Notes under the pieces: generated by a model
The model's input: only the letters and a program-made list of their open reading frames with translations
The model's database searches: none
Told to the model about the DNA's origin: nothing
Made by a program: the position numbers and the translations under genes
Shown: positions 554 through 19,954 of the stretch, piece after piece
How the letters are laid out: each line of letters starts with the position of its first letter
Numbering within the stretch: position 1 is the stretch's first letter
IMG/VR virus record: IMGVR_UViG_3300031760_000026
Length of the DNA stretch: 20,366 nucleotides
Reading direction: 5' to 3' (one strand)
From: a virus
Lineage: Duplodnaviria; Heunggongvirae; Uroviricota; Caudoviricetes

Positions 554-567
554 ATGCAATCACCTAC

Positions 568-1083: not shown

Positions 1084-1086
1084 TTA

Positions 1087-1983: not shown

Positions 1984-4900
1984 AACGAGCCAAGCCTCCT
2001 ATTAATGCGACCGGCGAAAGCACCATCGTCAAAGTACAAATCGCTTCCATTTTGAATTTCTTTAAGGATAGCGTTGCCGAGAGTAAGAAACTCTTTAATC
2101 TGCATCGGCGTAATAGACTGCTGTTGCTGCTCAGGCATGGAAAGGGATGGAGCAGCCAAGCTCATGGAGTAATCGGTAAGTGAACGAAGCTCTCCCATGC
2201 CAGATCTAATCTCACTCAAATCTAATACTGGAGTAATTGTCGGATTAGTATCCATTCCAGACTCAATCAACTGAGATAGATTTGAAACAGCAGAAGATAC
2301 TCCATCCATTGGTGCATTGCCCAGATCTTCGCCAACATGCATTGCTTTGCGAAGCATACTGCTGATGCCAATTACCCAACCTTCACCAAAGAATTCACCA
2401 GACCGCATCGCAGCCTTGGAAGGTGAAGCAATCTCCACGGCAGAATCAGCGCCTTCTTTTGCAGAAGTCGACAGGGAAGCACCAGCAGACCTAGCATCTC
2501 CAAGTTTTCCGAGGATACCATTGATAAACCCAGAAGCAACAAATCCGCCAGAAGAAACCCAAGATCCTTCGGTGCTGTCCACACCTTCAGATCCGGAATT
2601 TCCAAGTTGAGTTCCTGCATCCTGAACTTGAGGGTTAGTCTCCAAAAGTCCTGAAATAAATTCAGTTCCGGCACCAGAACCGGAGCTAAACATCTCAGGG
2701 CCAATTCCATCAAGACCAGAAGTGAGAGAAGCTCCAAGAGTAGTTCCAATGCCATCAGCGCCATCCATAGAAGATGTTATACCCTCAATTAAGTTGGAGC
2801 CAAGATTTTGTCCACTAGCCTGCACAGTCGGAGCAGCTGCATCAACACCAGATGCTACAGAAGAGGCAGCAGCTTCGCCACCAGCCGATAGATCGGTTTC
2901 AGCAACGACAGTATCCAATTCCATTTTAAGCCCTTCAAGACCTGCTGCTAGTTTTCCACCAATACCGGGAATTCCAGCAACAAGTTCTTCAAGAACTTCA
3001 AGAAATGTATTAACTATTGATTTACCAAGGTTTAAAACGGCAGCTATAAGCATTGGGCCATTGGAATTCATCGCAACGGCCATTCCATTTATAAAATTGA
3101 CAATAAGCGCAACGCCAGCCACAGCAAGAGGGCCAATTTGAGCAGATACCGCATTAATTAGACCGACTATAAGTTGAAGTCCGGCACTTGCTATCGCAGG
3201 AGCTGCCGATGCTAAAACTTGTAAAACGCCAACAACAAGTGAGCCAATAGCGCTAGCAATGGCGACCGCAGAAGAAGCTATTCCGCCAGCAATAGATGCA
3301 ATTAGTAAAGCAATTGCGCCAGCTAAAGATGCACCAATCACGCCAATACCAGCAATAAGTGTCGCAAGAGAAGCGACAATTGCAGCAGCACCAGCTGTCA
3401 TGCCAGCAGCAAGAGAGGTCATGCCAGCACCGAGAAGCATCATACCTGCACCAGCTAAAACAACTGCTAACCCAAATACTGCCAAGCTGCCGGATAAAGC
3501 TAAAATCATTGGAGCGATCGGGCCCAAAAGAAGTCCAGCAACACCTATTATTGCAAAAGCAGCAGCGAGGCCAAGCAACGCGGTGACCATGGATAATGGA
3601 CTAATAGCGCTGAGTACTGAAATAGCGCCAGCAAGAACAAGGATGGACGCGGATGCGACTAATAGTGCTGCAGAAGCGCCTACCGTTCCTTTCATAAAGT
3701 TAAGAGCTAATGCAATTTCAAGAAGGGCTGCTCCAATTCCAGCAACTCCTTGTAAAGCGGCTCCTTCACTTAGGCTTCCAATACTGCTTATAACAGAAGA
3801 AAGAATTGCTAAAGATGCGGCAACAACCAATATAGAGCCAGCAGAGCCCATCTTTCCTTGGACATTTCCGAGATATGACATAAGAACACCAATGCCAGCC
3901 ATTAAAGCACCAACAGAAGCCATTCCCTGAACAAGTGCATCAGGGTCCATATTAGCCAGTTCTTGAACAGAATTGACCAACACGCTAATCCCTGCTGCGA
4001 TTCCAAGCATACCAAGACCTTGAGAAATACCACCAGACCCTTTAGTAATAGCTTCAAATGCTGTTAACGCTCCAATCAAAGCAATTACAGCAACAGTTCC
4101 TTGGATCAATTCGCCAGTATCCATACTCCCCAATGACTTCGTAACACCGGCAAGTATGGCAATCGCTGCTGCGATTCCAATAAGTCCAAGAGCACTAGTC
4201 TTCATCTTTCCAGAAACCTTAGAAAGAGAAGCTGCCGAAATTGTTAGACCCGCAAGTAAAGCAGATACAGCAGCAAGGCCATGCTCCATCGAAGTCTCGT
4301 CAAGACCTGCTATCATTTTTAATGCTCCGGCCATAATGAAAACCGCAGCGGCCATGCCGACAAGGCCTTTAATTCCCTTGCTAGATTTCTTAGAAACTTG
4401 AGCTAATGAGGCTGCGGCTATTGTTAGCCCGGCCAGCATTGCAGAAATAGCCGCCAAAGAATGCTCCATAGCAGTCTCATCTATTCCGGAGATCATTCTT
4501 AACGCTCCAGCCATAATAAGTACTGCTCCAGCCATAGCAATCATACTTAAAACTGCTTTGGAAGAACCCGCAGAAAAAGCGCCAACATATTTTCCAAGCA
4601 AAGCGGTTGCTAAAACTAATTCACCAAGAAGAACGCCGAGACCAAGTAATCCAGTAGCCATGGAAGATGGATCAATGGCACTCAGTATCACAAGAGCTCC
4701 AGCAAGCATTAAAAGTGCTGTGGCTATTTTCTTTAGTCCATCAATTTTAATAGAGTTTGTAAAAGTAGAGATTGCATCAGATAAGCCTTCAAAAATATCA
4801 GTAATAGGCTCTAGTATTTTACTGACATCAATCCGGCCATCCTTTTTAAAGCTCTTTAAAAAATCATTAACTTTTTTAACTACAGAAGTTAATAATAAAA

Positions 4901-6875
4901 TTAAAGCAGCTCCACCACCAGCACTCAAAGCGGAAGCTGCTTTTTGAAAATCAAAGTTCTTAAAGAAGTTTTTGAAAGCATTTCCAATAGTATTTAATGT
5001 TTTGCTTCCAAACTCCTTTAATTTTGCGCCAATGCCAGAAAAATCGGATGCGAAATTCTTAATTTGATCTTTTAATGAAGAGAAAGATGCTCCAAGATTC
5101 CTAAGTTTCTCTCCTATTGATGGAATATCTAAGCCAAACTTCTTAGCTTTATCTCTTACAGATGCGAACATATCTCCAAAGCTCTTTAATTTTTTGCCTA
5201 TGGATGGTAAATCTAAATGAAACTCCTTAAGCTTTCCGTAAACAGTCGTAAAAGCTTTTCCAAGGTTGATTTGAAGATTTGCCAATTTGGCGCTAGTATC
5301 AGCAAAAAACTTAGCGGCCTTTGGAGAATTGTTTAATTCTGTAAGAAACCGACCGGCTTTAGCGGCAGCTTGAATTGCCTGACCTCCAAACTTCTTTAAA
5401 GCCTCGCCAGTCGGAGCTAAGCCAACAAATACGCTCTTAAAACCTCTTCCAATCAATGACAGACCAGAAGCTACTCCTTTAGAGATGTCTTTAATTATCT
5501 GCAGATTCTTTATTGCATTTTTATTGACAATTTCGCTCTCTGCCGTTTTTGTCCAATTTGGATTCTTGACAAGAGTCAATACTTTTTTTGTTGCTGCAAA
5601 ATTATCTGCAAATTTCTGAGTAAGATTAGAAATAGACTTTGTCATGCCAAGAAGTTTTTCAGAAGTCATTGCTGGAAATACTTCTTTAAATGATTCTTTT
5701 ACAGAACTGGCAATGCCCTTCAAACCTTCCCATGCATTCGAGATGGCTTTTAAAGCTTCCTTATATCCACCAGCTTCATGCCATTCTTGAAGCATTTCAT
5801 TACGAGCTTCGGCGCTTCCAGCAAATACTTCAATCATCTCATTGGCGACATTAGTCCATAACTTGCGAGCTTCATCATAATTACCGAAAACGAGTTCCCA
5901 AGTTTTAGACCAACCAGTACTCACAGCATCTTTGGTAGCTTCGACAGCGTCATTGAATGTTTTAGCTTCTTGTGCCGCATGGTAAGCATTTAAACCAAAT
6001 TCAGTCGTCTGATCGGCATACTTAGACAATGTAGCTAACAGTACGTCAGTATCCAGCCAGCCTTCATGAAGAGTCTGATCGAAATTCTTATATGTAATTT
6101 CCGTCTTCTTAGCAGATAATGCCAATCCATCCTGCGAAGTTTCCAATTTACCCAATTCAATAGCTGTTTGAATAGCAGTTTCTTTAAACTGCTTTGTGCC
6201 CATATTAAGAAGATTTATAGACTTCCAGTCCTGCATCTTCATTGCACCAGCTGAAATCGCCTGAGATAAATTATAAAATGCGGAAGCCGCTTTTGCTGGA
6301 CCAACACCAGCCGTGGCTGCCCAGTTAGCAATGCCCTCCATTGCATCTTCGGCAATATTTAAATCTACACCGGCAGAAGTAAATTTACCAATGCTACTAA
6401 CCATATCAGTAAAGTTGTAGCTAGTTTCATCAGTATAAACATTTAACTTATCAAGTACCTTGGACACATCGTCTATAGATTTGCCAGTTGCGTTCATGAT
6501 CGTCTGAACAGCTTCAGTCTTTTGAGCATATTTACTAAAGCCAGCCCCAATTTGGTCAACAGAAAGCGACTTAATCGCTGAAGCAGCTCGAGAACCTAAA
6601 CGAATAAAACCGTCAGTAAGACGGCGAAGAACTTGATCACCCATGATGCCAAGCGCCGAAAATCGACTTACTACAGTATCAAGTCCCGAAATAGCACCGC
6701 TAACACTAAAGCCAGAGAAAGCAGTGCCGATTGATTGCAAATTATCACTTGCACTTTTTAAATTTAGTGCAGATTTTAATCTATCTAAAGTACCAAGAGA
6801 TTTGCTAACGCCTTGTTCAAACTGGGCATTATCAAATCGCATTTCTACTATGCGTTCGTCAACTGATGGGCTCAT
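1980..6875 (-). CDS. Tape measure protein (1631 aa)
   Basis: N-terminal tape-measure domain (VQTIMNATG...YTDETSYNFTDMV), long Ala/Gly/Leu amphipathic and hydrophobic repeats, canonical position before Dit. Confidence 0.95.
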   Translation of the reverse strand: MSPSVDERIVEMRFDNAQFEQGVSKSLGTLDRLKSALNLKSASDNLQSIGTAFSGFSVSGAISGLDTVVSRFSALGIMGDQVLRRLTDGFIRLGSRAASAIKSLSVDQIGAGFSKYAQKTEAVQTIMNATGKSIDDVSKVLDKLNVYTDETSYNFTDMVSSIGKFTSAGVDLNIAEDAMEGIANWAATAGVGPAKAASAFYNLSQAISAGAMKMQDWKSINLLNMGTKQFKETAIQTAIELGKLETSQDGLALSAKKTEITYKNFDQTLHEGWLDTDVLLATLSKYADQTTEFGLNAYHAAQEAKTFNDAVEATKDAVSTGWSKTWELVFGNYDEARKLWTNVANEMIEVFAGSAEARNEMLQEWHEAGGYKEALKAISNAWEGLKGIASSVKESFKEVFPAMTSEKLLGMTKSISNLTQKFADNFAATKKVLTLVKNPNWTKTAESEIVNKNAIKNLQIIKDISKGVASGLSLIGRGFKSVFVGLAPTGEALKKFGGQAIQAAAKAGRFLTELNNSPKAAKFFADTSAKLANLQINLGKAFTTVYGKLKEFHLDLPSIGKKLKSFGDMFASVRDKAKKFGLDIPSIGEKLRNLGASFSSLKDQIKNFASDFSGIGAKLKEFGSKTLNTIGNAFKNFFKNFDFQKAASALSAGGGAALILLLTSVVKKVNDFLKSFKKDGRIDVSKILEPITDIFEGLSDAISTFTNSIKIDGLKKIATALLMLAGALVILSAIDPSSMATGLLGLGVLLGELVLATALLGKYVGAFSAGSSKAVLSMIAMAGAVLIMAGALRMISGIDETAMEHSLAAISAMLAGLTIAAASLAQVSKKSSKGIKGLVGMAAAVFIMAGALKMIAGLDETSMEHGLAAVSALLAGLTISAASLSKVSGKMKTSALGLIGIAAAIAILAGVTKSLGSMDTGELIQGTVAVIALIGALTAFEAITKGSGGISQGLGMLGIAAGISVLVNSVQELANMDPDALVQGMASVGALMAGIGVLMSYLGNVQGKMGSAGSILVVAASLAILSSVISSIGSLSEGAALQGVAGIGAALLEIALALNFMKGTVGASAALLVASASILVLAGAISVLSAISPLSMVTALLGLAAAFAIIGVAGLLLGPIAPMILALSGSLAVFGLAVVLAGAGMMLLGAGMTSLAAGMTAGAAAIVASLATLIAGIGVIGASLAGAIALLIASIAGGIASSAVAIASAIGSLVVGVLQVLASAAPAIASAGLQLIVGLINAVSAQIGPLAVAGVALIVNFINGMAVAMNSNGPMLIAAVLNLGKSIVNTFLEVLEELVAGIPGIGGKLAAGLEGLKMELDTVVAETDLSAGGEAAASSVASGVDAAAPTVQASGQNLGSNLIEGITSSMDGADGIGTTLGASLTSGLDGIGPEMFSSGSGAGTEFISGLLETNPQVQDAGTQLGNSGSEGVDSTEGSWVSSGGFVASGFINGILGKLGDARSAGASLSTSAKEGADSAVEIASPSKAAMRSGEFFGEGWVIGISSMLRKAMHVGEDLGNAPMDGVSSAVSNLSQLIESGMDTNPTITPVLDLSEIRSGMGELRSLTDYSMSLAAPSLSMPEQQQQSITPMQIKEFLTLGNAILKEIQNGSDLYFDDGAFAGRINRRLGSL

Positions 6876-7249
6876 GCGTTAGAAATCTCCTTCCATACAG
6901 ATTCTGCTATTTCATCGAAAACGGGCTGGACTGCTGGGGGAATGTAATTTCTTCCCTGAACATAACCCCCAGTCCCAGTACCATGCCCATATTGTAAAAT
7001 AATTGCTATATTGACACCCTTGTTAACGTTCGAATTTGTCCATGCAATCGATGCTCCACCACTTCCACTTTCAACTGTAAAATCCCAGGAGTTTGCAGTG
7101 CGGCCAGAGCCAACTGGAGTAGCAGCGGCTAATGCATCGACCCCAATTCGTCCATACTGGCTTAAAATGGAATCGATTTTCAGTTTTCGAGCAAATCCTA
7201 AAAACTTTGTGGTTTTGTTAAAATTTCCTCTATGGACAAATCTAATCAT
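6872..7249 (-). CDS. HK97 gp10-like tail completion / neck protein
   Basis: Motifs 'ATPVGSGRTANSW' and 'ILQYGHGT...GRNYIPPA' are typical of the gp10-like family; overlaps the tape measure start. Confidence 0.7.
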   Translation of the reverse strand: MIRFVHRGNFNKTTKFLGFARKLKIDSILSQYGRIGVDALAAATPVGSGRTANSWDFTVESGSGGASIAWTNSNVNKGVNIAIILQYGHGTGTGGYVQGRNYIPPAVQPVFDEIAESVWKEISNA

Positions 7250-7255
7250 ATAAGC

Positions 7256-7798
7256 TCATCCTTTAGTATGCATTGATCTGCGCCTGCTTGCATTTAAGGC
7301 TCTTTGCTGGGCCATAATGTCCTTTTTCGACATCTTACGAGGCTGTTTGTTCTTTTCATTGCATACTTGAATTAATGTAATAAGTCTATTTAAATGCCAT
7401 TTCTGGCACTCCATCGGAATATTGTATGCAGTCATAAGGTAATAAAAAATCTCAGCTGTAAAAATCTCCCGATTTGGTCTTGCGTGCGGATCTTGCCGAA
7501 TAACAGTCGCGGTCATTGGATCATGAATATATGCATCTATTTCTTTAAGATTCTCTTGAGATAGACGCTTATACACATTAGGATCACTAACTTTTCCAAC
7601 TGTCATGCAGCGGATATAGTCTAATGATTCCTCGGTAGTTAATGACTTAGCCTGTAAAAACGGCTTCTTCCATTTTGATTCCCATTTGGAAAGAGAAAGC
7701 AATGAATGCTCTAAACTAAGCTCCGTTGCCGGAACGGTGAAAAACATTTGAGTTTTTCGATCATACAGCTCTTGCTCTGGAATGGAAATCGTAAGCAT
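7256..7798 (-). CDS. Second tail assembly chaperone (lambda gpT-position protein)
   Basis: Lies between the first chaperone and the tape measure; 'KWHLNRLITLIQV' resembles Gp15-like chaperones. Confidence 0.65.
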   Translation of the reverse strand: MLTISIPEQELYDRKTQMFFTVPATELSLEHSLLSLSKWESKWKKPFLQAKSLTTEESLDYIRCMTVGKVSDPNVYKRLSQENLKEIDAYIHDPMTATVIRQDPHARPNREIFTAEIFYYLMTAYNIPMECQKWHLNRLITLIQVCNEKNKQPRKMSKKDIMAQQRALNASRRRSMHTKG

Positions 7799-7800
7799 TG

Positions 7801-8169
7801 TTAATCAATCTGTGGGATAATCCCATTTACGAACTCAGCAGCCTTCTTGTCATCAGTAGCAAGCTCCATAAAGATCTTGTTATATGCCGGCGTCTGAGAA
7901 AAAGCCTTAGAGAGTTCTTCACTTTTAATAAACCGACGACCATCATCAGACTTCTCGCCATAAGCATCGAGTACAAGCTTCTTAAACAAGCGAATAATCT
8001 CTGCCTGATTGTCGGCTTTTACAATTTTCTCGATGTATGCTTTCAGTCCACCATCGACAGACACATACATCTCAGCAATTTCGGATTCATTGAAATCAAA
8101 ATAGAAATCTTCTTCGCGATTATTGCCATTGTAATCAACATACTTAATAGTCTTTTTAATCATATCCAT
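7801..8169 (-). CDS. Tail assembly chaperone (lambda gpG-like)
   Basis: 122 aa, directly after the major tail gene; strong SD (GAAAGGAG) at 8173-8180. Confidence 0.75.
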   Translation of the reverse strand: MDMIKKTIKYVDYNGNNREEDFYFDFNESEIAEMYVSVDGGLKAYIEKIVKADNQAEIIRLFKKLVLDAYGEKSDDGRRFIKSEELSKAFSQTPAYNKIFMELATDDKKAAEFVNGIIPQID

Positions 8170-8180
8170 TTTCTCCTTTC

Positions 8181-8223
8181 AAAAAAAAGAAAAGGGATGC
8201 CAGCCTAACTGAATACATCCCTT
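8181..8223 (-). terminator. Intrinsic terminator/attenuator after the major tail gene
   Basis: Stem AAGGGATG / CATCCCTT (8216-8223 and 8192-8199) with an inner CAG/CTG stem, followed on the minus strand by TTCTTTTTTTT. Confidence 0.75.
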
Positions 8224-8243
8224 ACAATTAATAAATATTAAGT

Positions 8244-8900
8244 CTAACTCAGCATTCCAATGACTTGGTCCGGTGTAGGCAAATGGGCCGTGCCTTCGCC
8301 AGTTTCAGGGCCATACAGAGCGTCTTCTAAAGTCTTCAGCTTCGTGGAATCAACTTTAGTAGAGTCAATAGTAATGCAGGCCGTGGGCTTATGGCCCGTC
8401 ACATTGACTGGTGTAGTGGTAAACTCCCAACTAAAGGTGATGGCCTCGGGGGAGTCATTGATGGTCTGATAAGCGCGCTCAGACGGAGAAGCAGTAGCGT
8501 TATAAATCAGATGCAGCTTATAGCCATGATCGTCACGCTCAGTGTCATTACCAAGCACGGTACGATAGCAAAGGCCAAACGGAGTACGAGGCTGCTGGCC
8601 AATAGTCACACCGGTAACGACAGAAGCAGATCCATCGCAGGGGGCCCACTCATCAGGATAGGTGTAAGCTTCAATAGTACCACCAAACTCTTCGGCAGCA
8701 CGAAGCTCAAGGTACTTAATATCATCCGCATACAGAGGATTAGCATCAGCGCCAGAAGGAGACTCAGTCACGGCCGTAAGACCATTCCAAGCAACACCAT
8801 TGGGATAATTGCCACCCGCAGCCTGAGGATAAAGAACGCCCATGCGAACACCAGTTTCATAAAAATGTTCGCCGGTTGCATCCCAAACAAGTCTACTCAT
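8244..8900 (-). CDS. Major tail (tube) protein
   Basis: 'AEEFGGTIEAYTYPDEW' and 'TINDSPEAITFSWEFTTTP' are phi13-type tail tube motifs; highly biased codon use. Confidence 0.9.
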   Translation of the reverse strand: MSRLVWDATGEHFYETGVRMGVLYPQAAGGNYPNGVAWNGLTAVTESPSGADANPLYADDIKYLELRAAEEFGGTIEAYTYPDEWAPCDGSASVVTGVTIGQQPRTPFGLCYRTVLGNDTERDDHGYKLHLIYNATASPSERAYQTINDSPEAITFSWEFTTTPVNVTGHKPTACITIDSTKVDSTKLKTLEDALYGPETGEGTAHLPTPDQVIGMLS

Positions 8901-8915
8901 TGGGAAATTCCTCCA

Positions 8916-9224
8916 TTAATAGTAAATTCGAAATACATCATGATGAAGATTATTTGTCGTAAATGATCTAGAATGCCGAATACGATCAAAAGACCTTAAC
9001 AGCATATCAGACAACTCTGAATCTGGATCACGATGTATATAAGTTAAGTCGTATCCAACAAAGCCTCGATACTGAGAGTCATCAGCTCTGATGTCATTTC
9101 TGTCAGCAATGTTGTATACAAAGCAATCGTATTGAAGTTTTACCGACTCTGGGGGCTGGAAATAAACATTTCTAGATCCAAGAATTGAACATAACTCTTC
9201 ATGGAGTTGCAAGCGTCTCGCCAT
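8916..9224 (-). CDS. Tail terminator protein (likely start MARR at 9224; ORF track start 9239)
   Basis: 'NVYFQPP' motif and position before the major tail gene; SD-like GGGGGTG upstream of 9224. Confidence 0.7.
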   Translation of the reverse strand: MARRLQLHEELCSILGSRNVYFQPPESVKLQYDCFVYNIADRNDIRADDSQYRGFVGYDLTYIHRDPDSELSDMLLRSFDRIRHSRSFTTNNLHHDVFRIYY

Positions 9225-9534: not shown

Positions 9535-9560
9535 CGAGAATCACTTCCATTTTGATTTTA

Positions 9561-11627
9561 TCAGCCGTTGTCGCTGTCGCTGTTACCGGTAACCTCTTCC
9601 TCAATAACGATGAAGGAGTAGATGCGGGTGGTGGCGCCAGACATACGAGTCTCAATCAGGCTCTTCTCCTGGTTGAAGTCAATGTCGAAATCGGTGAAGT
9701 GGGTGATCTCGCCACCCTTGGTGGAACCAACAGAGTAGTCATTCAGGTTACCGATGATGGCGAGCAGCTTGTAGGTATGGCCATTAACGGTACGGGTCTT
9801 GTTGGCAAACTCAGGGACATTGTAAATGTTGTTAACATCCAGAGCAGTGGCCAGCTCATTCTTATTAGCGTACAGACGACGACCATTCAGATCCTTAGCA
9901 AGCATCATCTTATTGAAGAACTGCTGCTGGCAGAACATATCGGCAGCACCAGTGCCACGGTAATCGATCTTGGCATCCAGCATGGCCTCTTCCATCGCCT
10001 GAGCATACAGGTAGGAATCGCCAAAGTTGGCAGCGGTATTGGTGCCATTGGGGGTGCCAGTGATGTCAAGGGTCTTGTAAATGGTGAACAGATTCTGGTC
10101 GCCCCAGATAGGACGAACGTGATCCGCGCTGATCTTGTCAGAAGCAGCATCATCGCGGCCATCGCCAATCAGAATGGCACGGGCAATCTCGGTCTCCAGC
10201 TGCTGGCGATCGATCTTGTACTGGTACGCGACGTAATCGAAATCGGTGATGTCGACAATATCATCACGATTCAGAGCACTCTTAACATAAATGGTCTGAG
10301 GATCAGTAGCACGCTTGGCAACGGCATACTGTCCGGCCAGCACCTTCTCCTTGCCCTTCTTGTAGCCGCGAGCACGAATCTCCTCGATACCACGGACATC
10401 AACCTGGGAAGTACGAATACGGCTATAGGGGCTCTTGTGAACCTTATTCAGAACCGCAGTAACCCAGCCAAGATCATTAGTCACAAGCTCGGGAGCACCA
10501 GGACGAACATCTCTATACTCAGGGAACAGGGCCTCAACACCAGTACCAGGAGTAACAGGATAGGAATCAAAGCCGCTCACAGCCTTAGGATCGCCATCGG
10601 CATGGGCCAGCTCATTGGCTTCGGCAAAGTCCATAAAGGCCTGCCGGAAACTACCACCCTTCTTGGCGGCAGCAAGAATGGACTCCTCATCGGAGTGGGA
10701 CAGATAGGCCGCATCGGAAGCGGTCTGAGCGTCAAAAACATTGTGCTTCATAATATCTTCTCCTTCGAAGTCGGAATGCTCGACTTCATCATTTTTCTTT
10801 TTAGCGTCTTCAATAGCCTGGCCGATCATAAAATATACGACCTGCTTCTGCTCTTCAGTGAATTCGTCAAATACATCCTTGACAGTCTTTTCGCCTTTTC
10901 CTTCAGGCGCTTCACCATCGTCGTCGGCGTGCTTCACTTCGGTGTCTTCAGTGCCTTCTTCATCATCGTCATCTTTCTTGCCCTTAGCATCTTCCAGAGC
11001 CTGACCGATCATAAAGTAAACAACCTGCTTTTGCTCTTCAGTAAACTCGTCAAATACATCCTTGACAGTCTTTTCCTTCTTCTCGTTATCCACTTCAGTC
11101 TTCTCCTTACCTTCTGCTTCTTTTTCATCCTCGGCAGAATCTTCAGAATCAGCATGGCCGAGAACAAGACCTTCCTCGTCGTTAAAAATCGTAGCTTCAC
11201 TATTAAGCTCCTCGCTAGTCCCATCGGAGTGGGCCATTACAGGAAACTCAATATATGCGCCAGGATTCGCACCGGCGAGAACTAAACTAACTTCCTTAAT
11301 AGCTCCGTGAAGAACATCTCCACCGTGCTGCTTAAGCTGATTAGCATAAATAGATAATGCAGTCACATCGCCATGCTGAACAAGAGCCTTGGCATGCTGC
11401 CCCCAAGCAGTGTCATTAAACGTGCAGTAGGCATACACGCCTTCATCTCTATTTTCGAGAAGCGCATGTCCGAGAACATTAGTCGGATCGTCATGCCTAT
11501 GCTGCCAAACCAGGGGGACAGTCTGACCATCATCATCCTTAAAGGCATCCTTACGGATAGTGCGGCCATCAGAGCAACGTAAATCGTTTTTAGTTGCCCA
11601 ACCGCAAAAGTCAAACTTAGAACCCAT
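9561..11627 (-). CDS. Prohead protease - acidic scaffold - major capsid fusion (688 aa)
   Basis: N-terminal HK97-type protease with 'PLVWQH', His54 (VLGHA) and Ser114 (EVSLV); D/E-rich linker of about residues 135-292; capsid-like C-terminal region ending 'TRMSGATTRIYS'. Confidence 0.9.
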   Translation of the reverse strand: MGSKFDFCGWATKNDLRCSDGRTIRKDAFKDDDGQTVPLVWQHRHDDPTNVLGHALLENRDEGVYAYCTFNDTAWGQHAKALVQHGDVTALSIYANQLKQHGGDVLHGAIKEVSLVLAGANPGAYIEFPVMAHSDGTSEELNSEATIFNDEEGLVLGHADSEDSAEDEKEAEGKEKTEVDNEKKEKTVKDVFDEFTEEQKQVVYFMIGQALEDAKGKKDDDDEEGTEDTEVKHADDDGEAPEGKGEKTVKDVFDEFTEEQKQVVYFMIGQAIEDAKKKNDEVEHSDFEGEDIMKHNVFDAQTASDAAYLSHSDEESILAAAKKGGSFRQAFMDFAEANELAHADGDPKAVSGFDSYPVTPGTGVEALFPEYRDVRPGAPELVTNDLGWVTAVLNKVHKSPYSRIRTSQVDVRGIEEIRARGYKKGKEKVLAGQYAVAKRATDPQTIYVKSALNRDDIVDITDFDYVAYQYKIDRQQLETEIARAILIGDGRDDAASDKISADHVRPIWGDQNLFTIYKTLDITGTPNGTNTAANFGDSYLYAQAMEEAMLDAKIDYRGTGAADMFCQQQFFNKMMLAKDLNGRRLYANKNELATALDVNNIYNVPEFANKTRTVNGHTYKLLAIIGNLNDYSVGSTKGGEITHFTDFDIDFNQEKSLIETRMSGATTRIYSFIVIEEEVTGNSDSDNG
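10749..10765 (-). promoter_or_regulatory. Internal ribosome-binding site and in-frame ATG (Met293) for a stand-alone 396-aa capsid protein
   Basis: AAGGAGA (10765-10759), a 7-nt spacer, then ATG at 10751, in frame with the fusion ORF (876 nt = 292 codons from 11627). Confidence 0.75.
10801..11075 (-). repeat. Duplicated 92-nt scaffold segment (10801-10892 and 10984-11075)
   Basis: Both copies encode EKTVKDVFDEFTEEQKQVVYFMIGQA[L/I]EDAK; offset 183 nt; 82/92 nt identical by manual alignment. Confidence 0.95.
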
Positions 11628-11628
11628 T

Positions 11629-12885
11629 TTAAATTGTCTCCTCCATTTCTTCAGGATTTATGTCCGGATCATTTGATGGCGTCTTCGGAGATGTGTCATC
11701 AGAAACCGGATTAATATTCTTATTCTTAAGTTTATCCGCTTCAGGATCATCGCTAGGTTTCATTCCCATAAAGGTTCGAATCTCATTTGAAGATACGATT
11801 GCATTCTGAGTAAGAATGCCGGCAACATTAGCAAACGATGAAAGCGGAACAAATTTAAAGTAATCCTGGAAGAAAGAAATAGACTGCCCCTGAGTTCGGG
11901 CAGCCTTAGTTAAAAATTTACGCCGCATCTCTTCTGCAAAGGCAGTTAAGATTACAGCGACTACTCTTTGGTTGTAATTACGCATTGTCTCTTCATTAGC
12001 AGTTCCATTTAAGATCTCATTCGTAATCCCTAACTGGCCCATTAGTGTCTCAGTAAGATACTGAATTTGATTCATTAAATTGTTTTCTACCGGACGATTT
12101 AACTGCGTAATTCTTTCGGTACCATCTGTGTAAGCGATACCATATTTAGAACCAGCGAGCTGCATCTCAATATCTTTACGGCGAGCTTCAGCCTGCTGTT
12201 TTCTAGCTTCTGTCTTAATGACATAAGGTAACTGAATGATCAAATCCAACTTTCCAGCACTACTCTGTTCGTCAATTGCATCAAGCAAATTAAGCTTTCG
12301 AATAAGCCTCTGAAGAGTTGAGTTTGGTTCATTCATAATTGAATAGAATGGATTCTCGACAATGGCGACCATTTTCTTAGGCAAAATAATTTCTCGCCTC
12401 TGACCGGTCCTCTCATCGTAGACTTCGACCCTTACATGCTTAGGCATCCATTCTTTAATTTTTCCAGTCCGCATTGACAAAATATCATATGAGTTTGAAT
12501 CATAAGGGTTAATCGTTGTGTCAATAGGGACTAAAGCTACAACACCCTCGTCAAACATCGACATGACTGCGTCCTGGATCATAGATCGACCAACCTGATC
12601 AATATTGGCCTCAATGGACAAACAATTATTAAGTCCGGACTTAATTGTTTCAACGTATCGACCATCCTTATCAAGACGAACATGACGAATATCAACAGAC
12701 GCCACATCAACTGAGATATGGTTGAAGATCGCATTGATTATCGAGCGTTCATTTCCAAAAGATGATCTTCGTTTACTCAAATTATAAGATGAACCATAAT
12801 AATATGTTTCGGTACGAGGCGGGGTAGGGTCTTTATTGTTAAAGGCGTTCCATGCATGCTGGAGCCTATCAGTAAAACTAGGCAT
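11629..12885 (-). CDS. Portal protein (HK97-like, 418 aa)
   Basis: Size, position before the protease, and C-terminal 'SSNEIRTFMGMKP' portal signature. Confidence 0.9.
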   Translation of the reverse strand: MPSFTDRLQHAWNAFNNKDPTPPRTETYYYGSSYNLSKRRSSFGNERSIINAIFNHISVDVASVDIRHVRLDKDGRYVETIKSGLNNCLSIEANIDQVGRSMIQDAVMSMFDEGVVALVPIDTTINPYDSNSYDILSMRTGKIKEWMPKHVRVEVYDERTGQRREIILPKKMVAIVENPFYSIMNEPNSTLQRLIRKLNLLDAIDEQSSAGKLDLIIQLPYVIKTEARKQQAEARRKDIEMQLAGSKYGIAYTDGTERITQLNRPVENNLMNQIQYLTETLMGQLGITNEILNGTANEETMRNYNQRVVAVILTAFAEEMRRKFLTKAARTQGQSISFFQDYFKFVPLSSFANVAGILTQNAIVSSNEIRTFMGMKPSDDPEADKLKNKNINPVSDDTSPKTPSNDPDINPEEMEETI

Positions 12886-12906
12886 GAAAGCCCCTCACTT
12901 TACTTA

Positions 12907-13599
12907 TTACTTTGTGTATTTTTTCATAAGTGAAATATCTGCGGAAGACCTGATAGCTGCTGCGGCAAATTCATGTCCTCTATCAAGCGCCTTTTGCTCT
13001 GCTTGCGATAAAGCATCATATTTAGCAATTTCAGCGGCAGTTTTACTCCATTTCTGGCCATTCATTGCACCAAGAAACGCCAATGCAGCAGCTTGCTTCT
13101 TTCTCCCTAAAGAATATGTATCGCCTTTAGTTTTTTGATACCTACGAGCGAAAGTTTTCTTACTTCCATGGTATTTTCCAGCAAATTCAGCATCCGTAAG
13201 CCTATGATAATCTTCGGCTACTCTTCTAGTTGCAGAATTTTTAGCGATACTAACATCGACTTTTGCCTTTTCTCGCTCAAGTTTAGCTTCTTTTTTATCG
13301 GCTTTAGCTTTATCTGCCGCTTCTGCTTTCTTAAGTTGCTGGTTCTTAGCAGCAGCGTTCATTGACGCCAAAGTTTTATTTCCTAAACGATTATAGGTTC
13401 GCTCATTAATGTCATAAACTTTTGCTAATGCTCGATGAGCAGTGCCGCCGACAGAACCTCCACCATTGTAACGTTTCTCGCCAGCAGCTTTTAAAGAACC
13501 ATCTTCATTCTGAAAACGTCTTACACCCCACTTTTGGCCTTTGATTCCATGATGCATAAGATCGGAATCTCTTTGAATCTCGTATCCATATAAATTCAT
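12907..13599 (-). CDS. Basic HxG-KWG-motif protein 2 (likely start MNLYG at 13599; ORF track start 13611)
   Basis: N-terminal 'DLMHHGIKGQKWGVRRFQNEDGSL'; Lys/Ala-rich body; SD-like GGTGA 5 nt upstream of the ATG. Confidence 0.85.
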   Translation of the reverse strand: MNLYGYEIQRDSDLMHHGIKGQKWGVRRFQNEDGSLKAAGEKRYNGGGSVGGTAHRALAKVYDINERTYNRLGNKTLASMNAAAKNQQLKKAEAADKAKADKKEAKLEREKAKVDVSIAKNSATRRVAEDYHRLTDAEFAGKYHGSKKTFARRYQKTKGDTYSLGRKKQAAALAFLGAMNGQKWSKTAAEIAKYDALSQAEQKALDRGHEFAAAAIRSSADISLMKKYTK

Positions 13600-13613
13600 A
13601 TTGTTCACCAACT

Positions 13614-15365
13614 TTACTCAAATGTGTCTCGATTAGACTTATATGCCACATATGCATCCAGCATGGCCGCCACATTATCAATCTTATCTTGGCGACGCTT
13701 TTTTAATAATTTCCTATTGCCATTTGTGTCTTCAAGAGTTATGCAATTACCCATCGTGAAAGTCATCAAATCCTGATCAAAAATCAGCATCCGCTGCTCA
13801 GCATATGTTTTCAATTCACCGAGAGGGACTGACTCCGTTTTAGATCCCTGAATAACTTTCTCAATACCAAATGGCCCATTCTCTCTTTCCCAACGCTCGA
13901 CAAATTCTTTGGCATTATACGGGTCAAAGCCGAAGCATCGAACGTCATAACCTGTTTCAGTAATATACTGATCCAAATCTTCATAAACGGCCATCATGTC
14001 AAGAACTGTGCAGTCAAGCACAATTAAACTTCCTTCGTTGATGAAGTCGTTATACTTAATACGCATGGCAACTGGTAACTTATTAAGCGTTATGGACGAA
14101 ATGTAACTTCGAACCTTAACGCCAAAGCCACCATTCTTAAGCGGAAATAGAAATGTAAAGGCACAGAAGTCGTCTCCTTGAGAAAGGTCTGCGCCCAATG
14201 CACAAGGCATTGACCAGAAGTCTCTTCTTCGATGCGGAAGAGTCTCCTCATATGTAAAGAAGTACGTATAGCCTTCCATGGGGAGATTAAACCGCTTTGC
14301 CAAAATATCATTTCTAGCCGCTGGAACTTTCTCAGCTCTCTCTACGTCACGCTGATAGGTCTCATAAGTAACAGTTCGACCAAGATTAGGATTAGCCTTA
14401 AGCCACATTGCAGGATCTGCAACTTCCTTAATATCATCCAGCTTGTAATACCAAATCGACACATTAGGAGCGATGTACTCACCCTTAAGAATTGACATCA
14501 ATTCCATTTTGATTGTGTCACCAGCAGCATTACGAACTGTTCCTTCAGAACTAGTGGCAACTATAATGTAGTCATCCAAACCGCCTTTAGCTGCGCCTTG
14601 CTCAAGAGAGCCAATAGGATCTTCTCGGATGTCGCAAGAAAGCCATTCGTCAACTGTCGCGCACTTAACACGCAATCCTTGAAGTTTGTCAATGGCCATC
14701 GGACGGATCTCAAGCAATGAACCAGTTAGGAAATTCTCAATTCCCTTCTTTGTGGAAGCAAGTTTCACACGATTAGCTTTTGATCCTGTCGTGTTCTGAA
14801 GTGAACCCTCAGTAAGAAACTGAAACAATGGCCCTCTTGCTCGAACAATAGAAGTCTTGATAGGGGATAGGACCTCTTCGGACTGTTTCATTGTAGGAGC
14901 AGTTGTTACCTGATGTGTAGTAGTTCCATCGATGTTAAGAATGTACGACTGTATACAAGAAGCATACATCGATTTAGCTGCGCCTCTGGCAATTATTAAG
15001 TATTGCTTATTTATAAGACGCTGTTTAATACGTTTATTAACATAGTGACCGCCATGATTATCGGGACTTGGCTCATAAACAGATCTAGTAACAAAATAGT
15101 ACCAACCAAAAATCTGCTCGGCCCATAACTTGAAGGTATCAAGTAAAACTAGATCAGATCCGTCAGTCAAAGTTAATTCGTTTTCACAATACCTAATAAA
15201 TCCCTCGACAGCATCTTCATCATAATAAATGCCAGGATTCGCTATAAGGTCATCAATTCGGTTCATCTCCATGGAGATTTCCCTACAAACTGGGATCTCG
15301 CCACGAATGACTGCATCCCGAAATTGCCCGTAATACTTCGGGACAGCAGTATTAGATAAACTCAT
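13614..15365 (-). CDS. terL: Terminase large subunit
   Basis: Walker A-like 'IIARGAAKS', Walker B 'CATVDE', nuclease motifs 'GADLSQGDDF' and 'KIDNVAAMLDA'. Confidence 0.95.
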   Translation of the reverse strand: MSLSNTAVPKYYGQFRDAVIRGEIPVCREISMEMNRIDDLIANPGIYYDEDAVEGFIRYCENELTLTDGSDLVLLDTFKLWAEQIFGWYYFVTRSVYEPSPDNHGGHYVNKRIKQRLINKQYLIIARGAAKSMYASCIQSYILNIDGTTTHQVTTAPTMKQSEEVLSPIKTSIVRARGPLFQFLTEGSLQNTTGSKANRVKLASTKKGIENFLTGSLLEIRPMAIDKLQGLRVKCATVDEWLSCDIREDPIGSLEQGAAKGGLDDYIIVATSSEGTVRNAAGDTIKMELMSILKGEYIAPNVSIWYYKLDDIKEVADPAMWLKANPNLGRTVTYETYQRDVERAEKVPAARNDILAKRFNLPMEGYTYFFTYEETLPHRRRDFWSMPCALGADLSQGDDFCAFTFLFPLKNGGFGVKVRSYISSITLNKLPVAMRIKYNDFINEGSLIVLDCTVLDMMAVYEDLDQYITETGYDVRCFGFDPYNAKEFVERWERENGPFGIEKVIQGSKTESVPLGELKTYAEQRMLIFDQDLMTFTMGNCITLEDTNGNRKLLKKRRQDKIDNVAAMLDAYVAYKSNRDTFE

Positions 15366-15375
15366 TTTGAATTAT

Positions 15376-15846
15376 TTACTTCCCAATAAAATACTTGACA
15401 AAATTCTTGAGGTCATCCACTTTAATCCCTTCAAGACCTTGTTCCTTTAAAATATAGTTTTTGCCAGCTTTAAATGCCCACGTAGCAATTCCGGCAGCGG
15501 CCATAGTTCCAATGCGTTTCATAACATCTTGTGAAAACTTTTTTCCACCAGATACTTTCTGCTCTGCATTAACTAACTGTTTAAGTTGCTGCTCGGTCTG
15601 GATACGATTAACTCGTTCTCTAAGTTCTCGGTCACTAAGCTGATCTCTATGCTTATAAACTTCAGCAGCATTTGTAGATTTAAGAAGCTGCTCTTTAGTC
15701 GGAGCTTTGCTCTTCTTTTTAGCAAGCCCGACTTCTTTTCCACCTTCGCCACTTTGACGGCCGCGGACAGAATAGGGCTGAAATCTACGAATGCCCCATT
15801 TTTGTCCAAGGATGCCGTAATGGGCGAGATAATCTTCGTATTCCAT
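15376..15846 (-). CDS. Basic HxG-KWG-motif protein 1 (likely start MEYED at 15846; the track start 15885 lies inside the upstream terminator)
   Basis: N-terminal 'YLAHYGILGQKWGIRRFQ'; 'LSDRELRERVNRIQTE' helix; Lys/Arg-rich. Confidence 0.85.
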   Translation of the reverse strand: MEYEDYLAHYGILGQKWGIRRFQPYSVRGRQSGEGGKEVGLAKKKSKAPTKEQLLKSTNAAEVYKHRDQLSDRELRERVNRIQTEQQLKQLVNAEQKVSGGKKFSQDVMKRIGTMAAAGIATWAFKAGKNYILKEQGLEGIKVDDLKNFVKYFIGK

Positions 15847-15864
15847 TTTCAGTCCCACTTTCAT

Positions 15865-15900
15865 AAAAGAAAGGAGGGCCCTCAAACGAAGACCCTCCCC
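15865..15900 (-). terminator. Intrinsic terminator closing the accessory cassette
   Basis: Minus strand GGAGGGUCUUC-GUUU-GAGGGCCCUCC hairpin (11 bp including G.U pairs) followed by UUUCUUUU. Confidence 0.85.
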
Positions 15901-15907
15901 ATAAATT

Positions 15908-16414
15908 TTACTCGGCGGAACGAATCATCTCAATGAATCTGCGAAGCTCTCTGCGCTCATAGTCGGAACCAACAGAATCCATCTCCCGCTCAAGGCAAGA
16001 AATAGCTCGATCACCAATACTATGACGACTGTAGCCACGGCCATCTCCATAGTACATGGGATCATCATACTGGTAACCCATAGGTCCAGTGTAAGACCTA
16101 CCATGCTCCATGTAAGGGCCATCACCATAGCTCATACGCATGTTTCCACGAGGTCTGGCATAAGAAGTAATACTATACCGCCTTGGAGTAGCATACATCT
16201 CGCCATGACCATAGCATCCAGAATATTGAGACTTTTCGTTCTCTTCCTTCATCTCACAGTCCTCGATCTCATAGCACAAACGGTCCATAAGCTCGAAACC
16301 ATCAACTAATGCTTTCGTCTCGGCAGGAGTGAGATCAGTTTTCTTTCCAAGCTCGTTGATGTTCTTAACAGTAGCTTGTTTAAGTTTCTTTAAAGATTCA
16401 ACTTCGAAACCCAT
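15908..16414 (-). CDS. Cassette gene 6: hypothetical, helical ends with a Tyr/Gly/Arg/Met low-complexity core (168 aa)
   Basis: SD AGGAGG upstream; the central segment 'YSGCYGHGEMYATPRRYS...YYGDGRGYSRH' is compositionally biased. Confidence 0.85.
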   Translation of the reverse strand: MGFEVESLKKLKQATVKNINELGKKTDLTPAETKALVDGFELMDRLCYEIEDCEMKEENEKSQYSGCYGHGEMYATPRRYSITSYARPRGNMRMSYGDGPYMEHGRSYTGPMGYQYDDPMYYGDGRGYSRHSIGDRAISCLEREMDSVGSDYERRELRRFIEMIRSAE

Positions 16415-16431
16415 TTTGATTTCATTCCTCC

Positions 16432-16890
16432 TTAACGACTAATGATGACATTTGCGTTAGTAACAGCAATAGGAATTGCACTAGTGTTAATAACTGCAAA
16501 GTCTTGGCAGCAACCTTTAAACACAGGAACATTCGAAGCTCTCGAGACATTCCAAAAGTCTTCAGTCGCTGCAGGGGTAACGATCATAGTGGTGCCCTGG
16601 AGAATGCCATTGCCAACTTCAAAAGCAACACTAATCGGCCCAACGGTTTCGCCTTCAGGGATTGCGATGTTCGCACCAAAGTCGACCAAATACTGCACAG
16701 AATTGTTATAAGCGAGGCAGCAAGGGCAGCCATTGTAATTTGCATACGCACCACCATTCAGGTTAAATGTGCCACTATCATCACGATGTTTAACAAGACC
16801 CTTATAGCAGGGGACGGGATTTTCCGTAAAAACGATGGCCTCGCCAGGATTAACAATCTGCCTAGCCACATTAGTCCATTCAGCCATCAT
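16432..16890 (-). CDS. Cassette gene 5: all-beta, Cys-containing protein, possibly a BclA-C-terminal/C1q-TNF-like jelly roll (152 aa)
   Basis: Alternating beta pattern ('YLVDFGANIAIP', 'FAVINTSAIPIAVTNANVIISR') and 6 Cys. The fold assignment is recalled resemblance, not a search result. Confidence 0.7.
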   Translation of the reverse strand: MMAEWTNVARQIVNPGEAIVFTENPVPCYKGLVKHRDDSGTFNLNGGAYANYNGCPCCLAYNNSVQYLVDFGANIAIPEGETVGPISVAFEVGNGILQGTTMIVTPAATEDFWNVSRASNVPVFKGCCQDFAVINTSAIPIAVTNANVIISR

Positions 16891-16899
16891 AACACCCCC

Positions 16900-17709
16900 T
16901 TATGCCCCGCAACCGCAGCCAAGATTCTGATTGCAGCAGTTGGGATTAGGAATGATGTACGCAGGACTGGCAACAGGACGCAGATACTGCTCAAGAGCAG
17001 CGGTCTGAGCGGCCTGAGAAGCCAGAATCTGAGCAGTCTGGTCATTCTGAGAAGCCCGACGATTCGCTTCATTCAGAGCCGCCTGAAGCTCAGAGATTTG
17101 CTGATTCTTGCCATCCAGCTCGAGCTGGCAGATCTTGTCCATGATGGCAGTAAAACCAGCATTAGTAGAATTAACAAGAGCCTGGGTATTTGCAGTGTTA
17201 GCCGCCATAATATCACGAATGCCGTCATTTACAGCCTGGCGATCACTACAGGCCTCAGTGGCAACAGTGTACTTCAGATCGGCCAGACCAGCTCTGTTTT
17301 CACAACAGCAGTTCTGGAGACCCATAGTGAGGGAATTCATGCTCTGCAGAGTAGCAGCCTGATTAGCATTCAGAGTCTGCAAGACATTTGCCTGGGCATT
17401 GCAACGGGAAATCTCGGCGTTGGCGAAACCATTAGAGACAGCGGCAGTAAGACCATTCAGACCGCCCATAATAGCGGACTGATCGAATCCACGCTGAACA
17501 TCATTCTGAGTAGTGTTGCCCATCATCCAAGGCATCATGCCGCCACCTCCAAAGCCGAAGCCATTACCCCAGCCATTGTTGGCGAACAGCAGAAGAATGA
17601 TAAGCCACCAAGCTCCATCTCCACCAAAGAACCCATTGTTACCATAGCCACCAGTGACAGCAGCGACATCCGCGGCGGAAAGACCGCCATTACCTTCGGT
17701 AAAAGACAT
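16900..17709 (-). CDS. Cassette gene 4: Gly-rich N-terminus, one hydrophobic segment, long coiled coil and Cys clusters (269 aa)
   Basis: SD AGGAGGAG; 'AWWLIILLLFA'; 'QNCCCENR'; C-terminal 'NPNCCNQNLGCGCGA'. Confidence 0.9.
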   Translation of the reverse strand: MSFTEGNGGLSAADVAAVTGGYGNNGFFGGDGAWWLIILLLFANNGWGNGFGFGGGGMMPWMMGNTTQNDVQRGFDQSAIMGGLNGLTAAVSNGFANAEISRCNAQANVLQTLNANQAATLQSMNSLTMGLQNCCCENRAGLADLKYTVATEACSDRQAVNDGIRDIMAANTANTQALVNSTNAGFTAIMDKICQLELDGKNQQISELQAALNEANRRASQNDQTAQILASQAAQTAALEQYLRPVASPAYIIPNPNCCNQNLGCGCGA

Positions 17710-17732
17710 TTACGTCTCCTCCTGAAAATAAA

Positions 17733-17772
17733 TTTTTATACTTAACCCTTGGCCAAGGTTGTATATAAAAAA
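17733..17772. promoter_or_regulatory. Intergenic imperfect inverted repeat centred on the 12-bp palindrome CCTTGGCCAAGG
   Basis: Palindrome at 17747-17758, flanked by TTTTTATAC (17733-17741) and GTATATAAAAA (17761-17771). Confidence 0.6.
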
Positions 17773-18000
17773 TTAACGAGTCCTACCAGTTAATCGATTA
17801 GTAATCTGAGCAAGCTGATTGAACTGCTGCTGAGTCATTGCTCCACTTTGCATTAACTGTTGAACTCGTGCTTGAGGCGTCATTCCCATTTGATTCAGAG
17901 ACTGCATCATTTGATTTGCAGCGTTCTGAAAAGCTTGACGACTTGAGAATGGGCTTGAATCATTTTGATTTTGTTGAAACCGTTGATAGAAAGGATTCAT
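17773..18000 (-). CDS. Cassette gene 3: small Gln/Asn/Met-rich protein (75 aa)
   Basis: 18 Gln and 8 Asn in 75 residues; SD-like GAGGTG upstream. Confidence 0.8.
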   Translation of the reverse strand: MNPFYQRFQQNQNDSSPFSSRQAFQNAANQMMQSLNQMGMTPQARVQQLMQSGAMTQQQFNQLAQITNRLTGRTR

Positions 18001-18010
18001 CTAAAGCACC

Positions 18011-18427: not shown

Positions 18428-18430
18428 TTA

Positions 18431-18811: not shown

Positions 18812-18813
18812 TG

Positions 18814-19152: not shown

Positions 19153-19158
19153 AAAGCA

Positions 19159-19915: not shown

Positions 19916-19954
19916 GCCAGAGTTCACTCCTTATTTCATTAAGTTTTACTACAC

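Follow-up and report, generated by a model that had tools for sequence, protein, structure and literature searches.

A short asymmetric nucleotide motif recurs on the coding strand of the late operon in the viral contig IMGVR_UViG_3300031760_000026, and the same motif is conserved in the late operons of related phages whose hosts belong to two phyla. The stretch of DNA analysed here, referred to as the window, is 20,366 nucleotides (nt) long and comprises a siphovirus late operon, with every gene carried on the minus strand. The operon begins with genes for an HNH endonuclease, a connector-like protein, a six-gene cassette, a DUF7211 protein and TerL, continues with a second DUF7211 protein, portal, protease-capsid fusion, head-tail genes and major tail protein, and ends with chaperone, tape measure and distal tail protein. 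The pattern AWTCAAAATGR was counted on both strands of the whole window and occurs seven times on the minus (coding) strand and never on the plus strand, which confirms the seven positions and the single orientation proposed by a sequence-only reading that preceded this analysis. Its 8-mer core TCAAAATG is likewise found seven times on the coding strand and not at all on the opposite one. We place at roughly 0.5 the probability that the motif is a compact late promoter or initiation site for the lineage's own polymerase, a putative RNA polymerase of the family PHROG 4291, in which case the 9-mer TCAAAATGG would be the invariant core of a phage-specific late transcription signal. The operon and the motif copies, with lengths of encoded proteins in amino acids (aa), are as follows.

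2..19927, minus strand: late (packaging, head, tail) operon, which holds all motif copies.
17960..17970, minus strand: motif copy AATCAAAATGA, within the 75-aa cassette gene (17773-18000), in the phase CAA-AAT-G.
16411..16421, minus strand: motif copy AATCAAAATGG, whose ATG (16414-16412) starts the 168-aa cassette gene, with GGAGG 12 nt upstream.
15362..15372, minus strand: motif copy ATTCAAAATGA, whose ATG (15365-15363) is the TerL start codon.
14504..14514, minus strand: TerL-internal motif copy, read as ATC-AAA-ATG (Ile-Lys-Met, at about residues 285-287), its position kept across the clade.
11624..11632, minus strand: copy with one mismatch, TTAAAATGG, at the start codon of the protease-capsid gene; most relatives match the motif exactly here.
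9547..9557, minus strand: intergenic motif copy, in the 26 nt that separate the stop of the protease-capsid gene (9561) from the DUF7253 gene, which starts with TTG (9534).
7670..7680, minus strand: motif copy within a 180-aa tail-module gene (7256-7798), read as TCA-AAA-TGG (Ser-Lys-Trp).
2047..2057, minus strand: motif copy in the tape measure gene, 25 codons before its stop and about 70 nt upstream of the distal tail protein gene.

Four of these copies are intragenic and span three codon phases, and two supply the start codons of TerL and of the 168-aa gene, all as had been read from the sequence alone; in total, the motif coincides with only two of the window's 24 start codons. The core is followed by G in five copies and by GGAA in four. 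The copy after the capsid gene, which had also been placed correctly between the capsid stop and the next gene, is followed by a TTG start, and its own ATG opens just seven codons. A copy directly after the capsid stop is found in loci L001, L073 and L063 too, and the DUF7253 gene of most relatives has its start codon supplied by a motif copy. In the window (9534-9557, minus strand), the DUF7253 TTG start lies 17 nt downstream of the motif ATG and out of frame with it. Since most relatives start DUF7253 at the motif ATG, the start has shifted here while the motif stayed. Overall, the window is poorer in copies than most of its relatives.

Taken by itself, the window is suggestive, with a modest excess under codon-aware null models, but not compelling. 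Dinucleotide shuffles yielded a mean of 0.20 copies (both strands together), and none of 100 reached seven. The enrichment first claimed thus holds against this null, but codon-aware nulls leave the window only modestly unusual: shuffling synonymous codons gave seven or more copies of the 8-mer at p = 0.065 and 1.44 expected intragenic copies against the four seen (p = 0.054), while shuffling codon order gave p = 0.003. The count of the top 11-mer was matched in about 1% of shuffles (p about 0.01).

We regard the comparison with relatives as the decisive evidence for the motif. No near-identical DNA to the window was found in the phage collection searched. A search with the protease-capsid fusion brought up 74 related loci (36-61% protein identity), drawn from Clostridia genomes and viral contigs, and a dereplicated set of 22 lineages provided 338 kb of related late operons. 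The 8-mer is present on the coding strand in all 74 loci, with 455 coding and 10 non-coding copies in total. The 22 dereplicated relatives together hold 109 coding-strand copies of TCAAAATGG and none on the non-coding strand. No other 9-mer is as common, ribosome-binding-site words included. Single-base variants of TCAAAATGG have at most nine copies each, except for the change of the last G to A, which has 18; this sharp specificity points to the recognition of a specific sequence. Near-matches at three other starts had also been noted. The one at the protease-capsid start sits where relatives have an exact copy. Since relatives seldom contain variants of the 9-mer with a single substitution, the near-matches at 15846 and 8169 probably represent no more than the usual A-rich surroundings of a start codon.

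Across the dereplicated set, 130 motif copies were classified by position. Fifty-three of them provide the ATG with which a real gene begins (that for the packaging protein, portal or capsid, or the DUF7253 gene), 69 are intragenic and distributed over the three codon phases (26, 23 and 20), and eight are intergenic, with a median spacing of 1.9 kb between copies. The intragenic copies keep their positions in relatives. At the Ile-Lys-Met site within TerL, all 14 relatives that have the isoleucine encode it as ATC, a codon used for 28% of isoleucines in these genes, and the adjoining synonymous positions vary. In the 180-aa tail gene, relatives have the motif at the first of two Ser-Lys-Trp triplets, where serine is TCA in 15 of 16 (usage 23%). 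The window has TCC at that first triplet and the motif at the second, four codons further on, as if the loss of one copy had been compensated by the gain of another nearby. This shift and the synonymous codons that stay fixed while those around them vary point to selection acting on the nucleotides. The TerL-internal site was also identified in the Lactococcus phage P092, in the Faecalibacterium phage FP_oengus, in the Gordonia phage Rickmore and in the Rhodococcus phage ReqiPepy6, and the Ser-Lys-Trp site is present in the same gene of Arthrobacter, Gordonia, Rhodococcus and Streptomyces phages. All listed tape measure genes with a readable 3′-end have a copy near that end, roughly 25-81 codons short of the stop codon and just ahead of the gene for the distal tail protein. 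These observations bear out the view, first drawn from the window, that the motif is a strand-specific nucleotide-level signal of the late operon and no codon artefact, and they supply the conservation of intragenic copies in relatives on which that view depended. The motif is also a clear case of what would be a regulatory signal embedded in coding sequence through synonymous codons and held across phyla.

The copies are confined to late genes. In the 5.7 Mb genome of a Hungatella strain (G001), 79 copies were counted on both strands, 11 of them on one strand of a 20-kb prophage late operon, so that the motif is about 45 times denser there than in the remaining genome. The run of copies in this prophage extends from the first packaging gene to past the tail genes, and none is present in the preceding 24 kb, whose genes point the same way. 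A second host genome has two clusters of copies, one for each prophage. In seven genomes, the relaxed pattern TCAAAATRR has 65 coding and one non-coding copy in late regions (193 kb), compared with eight coding and two non-coding copies in co-directional regions that are not late (108 kb). Four further metagenomic lineages have no copy at all in the 10 kb upstream of the polymerase gene, and the sole copy in those four loci lies within the polymerase gene. In some lineages (L003:755 and contig C5 of genome G003, L077:8234), a copy is located within an exonuclease-like gene about 330 nt upstream of the polymerase gene. Transcription of the polymerase gene could be started from such a copy in a feed-forward manner.

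Without any signal, the copies in the window might arise by chance or simply follow from codon usage and A-rich start contexts. The codon-preserving shuffles of the window alone (p about 0.05) leave room for it, and AAAATG is a common start context. Against the strand counts in relatives, the conservation of positions and synonymous codons across phyla, the absence of the motif from co-directional early genes and its lack of enrichment in host genomes, this explanation is refuted and hardly credible.

The motif extends well beyond the Clostridia. Named phages with this capsid type include Arthrobacter, Gordonia, Streptomyces and Rhodococcus phages, the Lactococcus P092 group and the Faecalibacterium phage FP_oengus. 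In FP_oengus, the 8-mer is the top-ranking one, with 17 coding copies and one non-coding copy at a GC content of 52%, and P092 has 11 copies and none on the opposite strand. Four exact copies were located in the Arthrobacter phage Elsa and four in Rickmore (marking the starts of the capsid gene and of the gene after it, and the TerL-internal or the Ser-Lys-Trp site), and copies are found at matching gene positions in Elsa, Rickmore, ReqiPepy6 and the Streptomyces phage Kardashian. The extended motif is about AAWTCAAAATGGA in Clostridia phages and TCAAAATGGGAGT in actinophages. In ReqiPepy6, Elsa and Kardashian, the core is followed by GGGAGT, AGGAGT or GAGAGT; here the copies are intergenic, a few bases past the previous stop and 18-50 nt before the next start, and they are often fused to the ribosome-binding site. 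The motif is invariant across lytic and temperate members and across both host phyla.

Several familiar signals were considered and rejected. A start-codon or translation-initiation context, one of the roles first suggested, does not agree with 77 of the 130 copies lying away from starts, with the two of 24 starts that bear the motif in the window, or with the actinophage copies, which sit in intergenic gaps well before the starts. The Shine-Dalgarno distance in these late operons has a median of 10 nt at motif-bearing starts and 8 nt at other starts. Pairing with 16S rRNA is not supported, as shuffled motifs are just as complementary to the host 16S rRNA. A polar motif of the host, such as Chi, FtsK-orienting polar sequences or SpoIIIE recognition sequences (KOPS/SRS) or an uptake sequence, is not indicated either: with prophage clusters set aside, host genomes contain about as many copies as of the backwards control sequence. 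The absence of host enrichment and the confinement to late genes leave a Chi-like or packaging-like polar motif, another of the suggested roles, unsupported. Late-gene restriction, lack of host enrichment and the link to translation signals likewise speak against a frameshift signal, an uptake sequence, Chi or KOPS, and a methylation site. The suggestion that comes closest is a site for a late regulator.

One way to accommodate a coding-strand signal at or just before translation signals is to place it on the RNA, as a site on the late polycistronic message for a sequence-specific endoribonuclease or an RNA-binding protein that would cut or tag the message immediately before ribosome-binding sites or starts and so set its stability and stoichiometry. 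The copies on both sides of the capsid gene in several relatives would suit such a role, and so would the predicted folds, in which the motif is slightly more often unpaired (0.53, compared with 0.44 for composition-matched 9-mers), a difference that is small and indecisive. No conserved RNA structure was found around the motif in these predicted folds, however, and the 16S rRNA comparison gave no special complementarity. To remain the same in phages of Actinobacteria and of Firmicutes, the reader of such a site would need to come from the phage itself, and the conserved neighbouring genes included no recognisable RNase or RNA-binding family. A cut between the Shine-Dalgarno sequence and the AUG would moreover uncouple the motif-bearing starts. 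We therefore consider an RNA-level signal unlikely.

A candidate reader at the DNA level is encoded next to the motif-bearing genes. In relatives, a gene for a putative single-chain, two-barrel polymerase flanked by helix-turn-helix (HTH) domains (PHROG 4291) lies just upstream of the late operon, across the genome end. All relatives with loci long enough to extend to this gene, the closest relative among them, encode the protein, at 900-1045 aa, and all six named phages with examined late regions have both RNA polymerase hits and the motif. The 915-aa homologue in the Hungatella prophage matches PHROG 4291 from end to end, and the 925-aa product upstream of the late genes in FP_oengus is annotated as 'RNA-dependent RNA polymerase'. 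Records of the polymerase and of the capsid type have a near-equal make-up of host genera (251 and 244 phage records), and the polymerase family comprises 1020 representatives of 50%-identity clusters at E ≤ 1e-30, spanning phages of gut Clostridia, lactococci and soil actinobacteria. The shared ancestry of this clade across phyla has been described, as has its putative polymerase with HTH domains at both ends and a DxDGD motif (Koert et al., 2021; bioRxiv 10.1101/842583).

The catalytic loop of the polymerase is ADFDGD at residues 520-525, and S518, G519, A520, D521, D523, G524 and D525 are invariant in 81 sequences, with F522 nearly so. The C-terminus contains an HTH that resembles sigma region 4. 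A first structural model, built from seven sequences, was unusable (predicted local distance difference test, pLDDT, 53); a model from 81 diverse sequences reached a pLDDT of 87 and a predicted template modelling (pTM) score of 0.80. Foldseek with this model returned 26 matches at E ≤ 0.001, namely QDE-1, P74-26 gp62, P23-45 gp64 and gp96, and plant RDR2, all of them two-barrel polymerases, followed by weaker matches (E 0.02-0.06) to the large subunits of cellular RNA polymerases and to a crAss-like phage polymerase. Global TM-scores are low (0.24-0.32), which is no surprise for a remotely related protein of several domains. No significant PDB match emerged from sequence or profile searches with the polymerase. 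The model has the fold of the two-barrel polymerases and marks the PHROG 4291 protein as a distant relative of YonO and QDE-1 and a putative RNA polymerase, and no biochemistry of the family was reported in the literature searched.

If this polymerase is the reader, the copies, placed every 1-2 kb on the non-template strand, would feed the late genes from several start points. A start codon would be the cheapest site for such a signal, since the signal itself contains ATG followed by G, and the compact Firmicutes operons place it there. Where no start codon is in reach, the signal would be written into the coding sequence through fixed synonymous codons. As the actinophage ribosome-binding site directly follows the core, transcription would have to start within the core or at its 3′ edge. 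The overlap with start codons in Firmicutes phages could mean leaderless messages, or could simply reflect the cheapest place for a signal that contains ATG. A stricter version, which we find doubtful, would have a minimal, sigma-independent promoter of 9-13 nt that the polymerase alone recognises and within which it starts, unchanged since these phages split between two phyla. With the start at the A of the ATG, Firmicutes late messages would be leaderless and actinophage messages would open with the ribosome-binding site.

Several points weigh against a late promoter for this polymerase. The polymerase gene lies beyond the window and was seen only in relatives, including the closest, from which its presence in the window's own phage would follow by analogy. 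Polymerase, capsid module and motif are always inherited together, for which reason their co-occurrence cannot single out the polymerase as the reader. The sequence upstream of the core is poorly conserved, an uncommon trait in promoters of single-chain polymerases, and a promoter midway through TerL, with 900 nt still to go before the next gene, has no evident use. The Bacillus prophage SPbeta, the sole YonO system with a mapped start, shows no such motif: TCAAAATG occurs three times on each strand in the 45 kb examined, with no enrichment in the late region or in the gap upstream of yonK. Finally, the N-terminus of the polymerase resembles a DUF7211 protein, which hints that the enzyme is carried in the virion; if true, virion loading would complicate which class of promoter it reads. 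This N-terminus, LMHYGMPRRSGRYPWGSG (L067:1094-3841, with homologues in L019, L073, L071, L029 and L077), resembles the N-terminal tags HYGILGQKWGIRRFQ and HHGIKGQKWGVRRFQ of the basic DUF7211 proteins encoded on either side of TerL in the window (12907-13611 and 15376-15885, minus strand).

A second motif family complicates the assignment further. Named clade members carry it in their early regions, at the loci below; its form in actinophages is tcgca-N5-tacac-N4-TATAATGAGAcccc.

L087:30113-36837: early motif family region.
L089:38920-42570: early motif family region.
L086:25264-31171: early motif family region.
L085:22979-29905: early motif family region.

P092 has a related form, TTTTACATACCCTATAATGA, and the early repeat of FP_oengus differs (CGCGAAAAA ... 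TGATATTT). The spacing of the parts is unlike that of a sigma-70 -35/-10 pair. The polymerase might in fact be directed to this early motif, all the more so if virions carry the enzyme, a further point against its reading the late motif. The early motif varies by lineage, however, and is absent from the temperate Hungatella-type prophages, which retain both the polymerase and the late motif. Early and late motifs have the stretch AATG-R-GA in common, which would fit two promoter classes read by one enzyme.

The late motif would then be left to the host core polymerase, directed in the manner of T4 by a sigma-like protein or activator of the phage, while the phage polymerase serves the early tripartite promoters. 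A short A-rich element with no -35 box, a -10-like CAAAAT that keeps the key A and T, and an early motif family able to occupy the phage polymerase are all compatible with such an arrangement, as are the DUF7211-like N-terminus, which hints at virion delivery and early use, and the position of the polymerase gene next to late virion genes. Yet no gene resembling a sigma factor or gp55 was recognised next to the late operon, the early motif is missing from prophages that keep the polymerase and the late motif, and the host polymerases of two phyla would need the same strict 9-mer. The -10 element of a host sigma-A promoter (TATAAT, with T at -12) was rejected by itself, as the corresponding position is C in 109 copies and T in six; the invariant C where sigma-A would prefer T makes a host sigma factor an unlikely reader. 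Altogether, transcription by the host polymerase seems to us quite improbable.

Asymmetric sites in one orientation along an operon, 1-2 kb apart, could also bind another phage protein: a stoperator-like repressor, a late activator, or the HNH endonuclease acting as a strand-specific nickase. HNH enzymes encoded next to the cohesive-end (cos) site of phages can be strand-specific nickases, and the stoperators of L5 are asymmetric oriented sites. The HNH endonuclease gene (conserved phrog_4321) is found just upstream in the lineages examined; an exact-protein look-up with the HNH gene of the window returned nothing. Repressor sites normally co-vary with immunity groups, but this motif is invariant in lytic and temperate phages and across phyla, and no repressor gene travels with the late module. 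A stoperator-type site was rejected for the same 9-mer being present in temperate prophages and in actinophages, in two phyla, and no integrase or repressor is annotated in the examined regions of the motif-bearing actinophages. For nicking, the restriction to late genes and the attachment to ribosome-binding sites or starts have no clear rationale. A DNA site for such a protein is accordingly a rather remote prospect. Taken together, the RNA-level, host-polymerase and other-protein explanations hold a sizeable probability, somewhat short of even odds, beside that of a late promoter for the PHROG 4291 polymerase.

The six-gene cassette (15908-18817, minus strand; 128, 138, 75, 269, 152 and 168 aa) lies between the connector-like gene and the DUF7211 and TerL genes and is an insertion relative to most relatives; the closest relative, L001, has at least the 168-aa gene. 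One product of the cassette is glycine-rich and probably membrane-associated. No classical small terminase was recognised in the window, and the 75-aa cassette gene gave a weak, sub-threshold small-terminase hit. The two motif copies in the cassette had been taken as a sign that it is integrated into the same circuit, and they do look like part of the same system, because the start of the 168-aa homologue in L001 also carries the motif.

A hairpin adjoins the physical genome end, and its relation to the motif is uncertain.

20150..20186, minus strand: G/C-rich hairpin with the loop CCAAAATG.

According to a look-up with the connector-like gene, contigs that carry genes of this phage have their first base some 230 nt ahead of the first late gene. 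Hairpins of a similar kind, with loops rich in CAAAA, are found at the contig ends of the independent lineages L097 and L100, and in FP_oengus and L029. Contigs of independent lineages that carry the polymerase have the same type of hairpin at their end, followed by letters like CTCTGCAT. Because contigs start and end at this hairpin region, positions 20150-20366 of the window look like the right end of the genome joined to the left. The hairpin could be a cos element, the terminator of the polymerase operon, or the first copy of the motif, displayed in a loop. An exact-word search of viral contigs with the end region of the window returned nothing.

Among known late systems, T7 uses a right-hand, single-subunit polymerase and a 23-bp intergenic promoter with an initial G-rich GGGAGA. 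The motif shares with the T7 class III promoters a phage-encoded polymerase, co-directional repetition through the late genes and a Shine-Dalgarno-like G-rich stretch (GGGAGT in the actinophages here); it differs in the far shorter conserved core and in the two-barrel enzyme with HTH domains. The late promoters of T4, TATAAATA, are read by the host core polymerase with gp55, gp33 and the sliding clamp. They too are short A/T-rich elements without a -35 box, present in many copies near late-gene starts and sometimes within genes, but the sequence differs and genes for gp55, gp33 and the clamp were not recognised here. In mycobacteriophages, the start-associated sequences (SAS) of cluster K contain the ribosome-binding site and keep a fixed short distance to starts, and the stoperators of cluster A vary with immunity group. 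Both are short asymmetric motifs oriented with transcription, at gene starts (SAS) or throughout operons (stoperators). The late motif, in contrast, is also intragenic, has a variable distance to starts and is invariant in lytic and temperate phages of two phyla.

The clade delineated by Koert et al. (2021), an actinophage supercluster with the Lactococcus 1706 group and FP_oengus, consists of the same phages with the same protein family, and the late motif is additional to it. Their report (bioRxiv 10.1101/842583) describes no promoter or repeated DNA motif, and the word promoter is absent from it. Our literature searches (with the motif string, for promoters of the clade, and for ReqiPepy6 and phage 1706) found no published description of the motif, which thus adds a late signal to a known clade and a known polymerase, and would let the late genes of this phage group be annotated from sequence.

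The closest parallels are the single-chain, two-barrel polymerases of the Thermus phage P23-45, gp96 and gp64, each of which uses its own repeated promoter motif (Chaban et al., 2024; PMC10770324). Those motifs are at least 15 nt long, lie upstream of mapped pre-early and early starts and were verified by ONT-cappable-seq and ChIP-seq (PMC10770324). The enzyme type is shared, gp64 and P74-26 gp62 being among the best fold matches, and in both cases short motifs in one orientation precede blocks of genes. The present motif differs in its 9-nt core, its late genes, its frequent location at start codons or within genes and its unrelated sequence, and it is known from sequence alone. YonO, another single-chain, two-barrel polymerase encoded upstream of a late operon, transcribes the late genes of SPbeta, which form one operon with one start upstream of yonK, and its promoter sequence was left open (Forrest et al., 2017; PMC5467207). 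Its relationship to the PHROG 4291 proteins, which possess HTH domains, is remote. How YonO-like single-chain polymerases find their genes is a question explicitly posed for YonO (PMC5467207), and a defined 9-mer would provide a concrete template on which in vitro transcription by this type of enzyme, DNA binding by its HTH domains and its structure could be studied.

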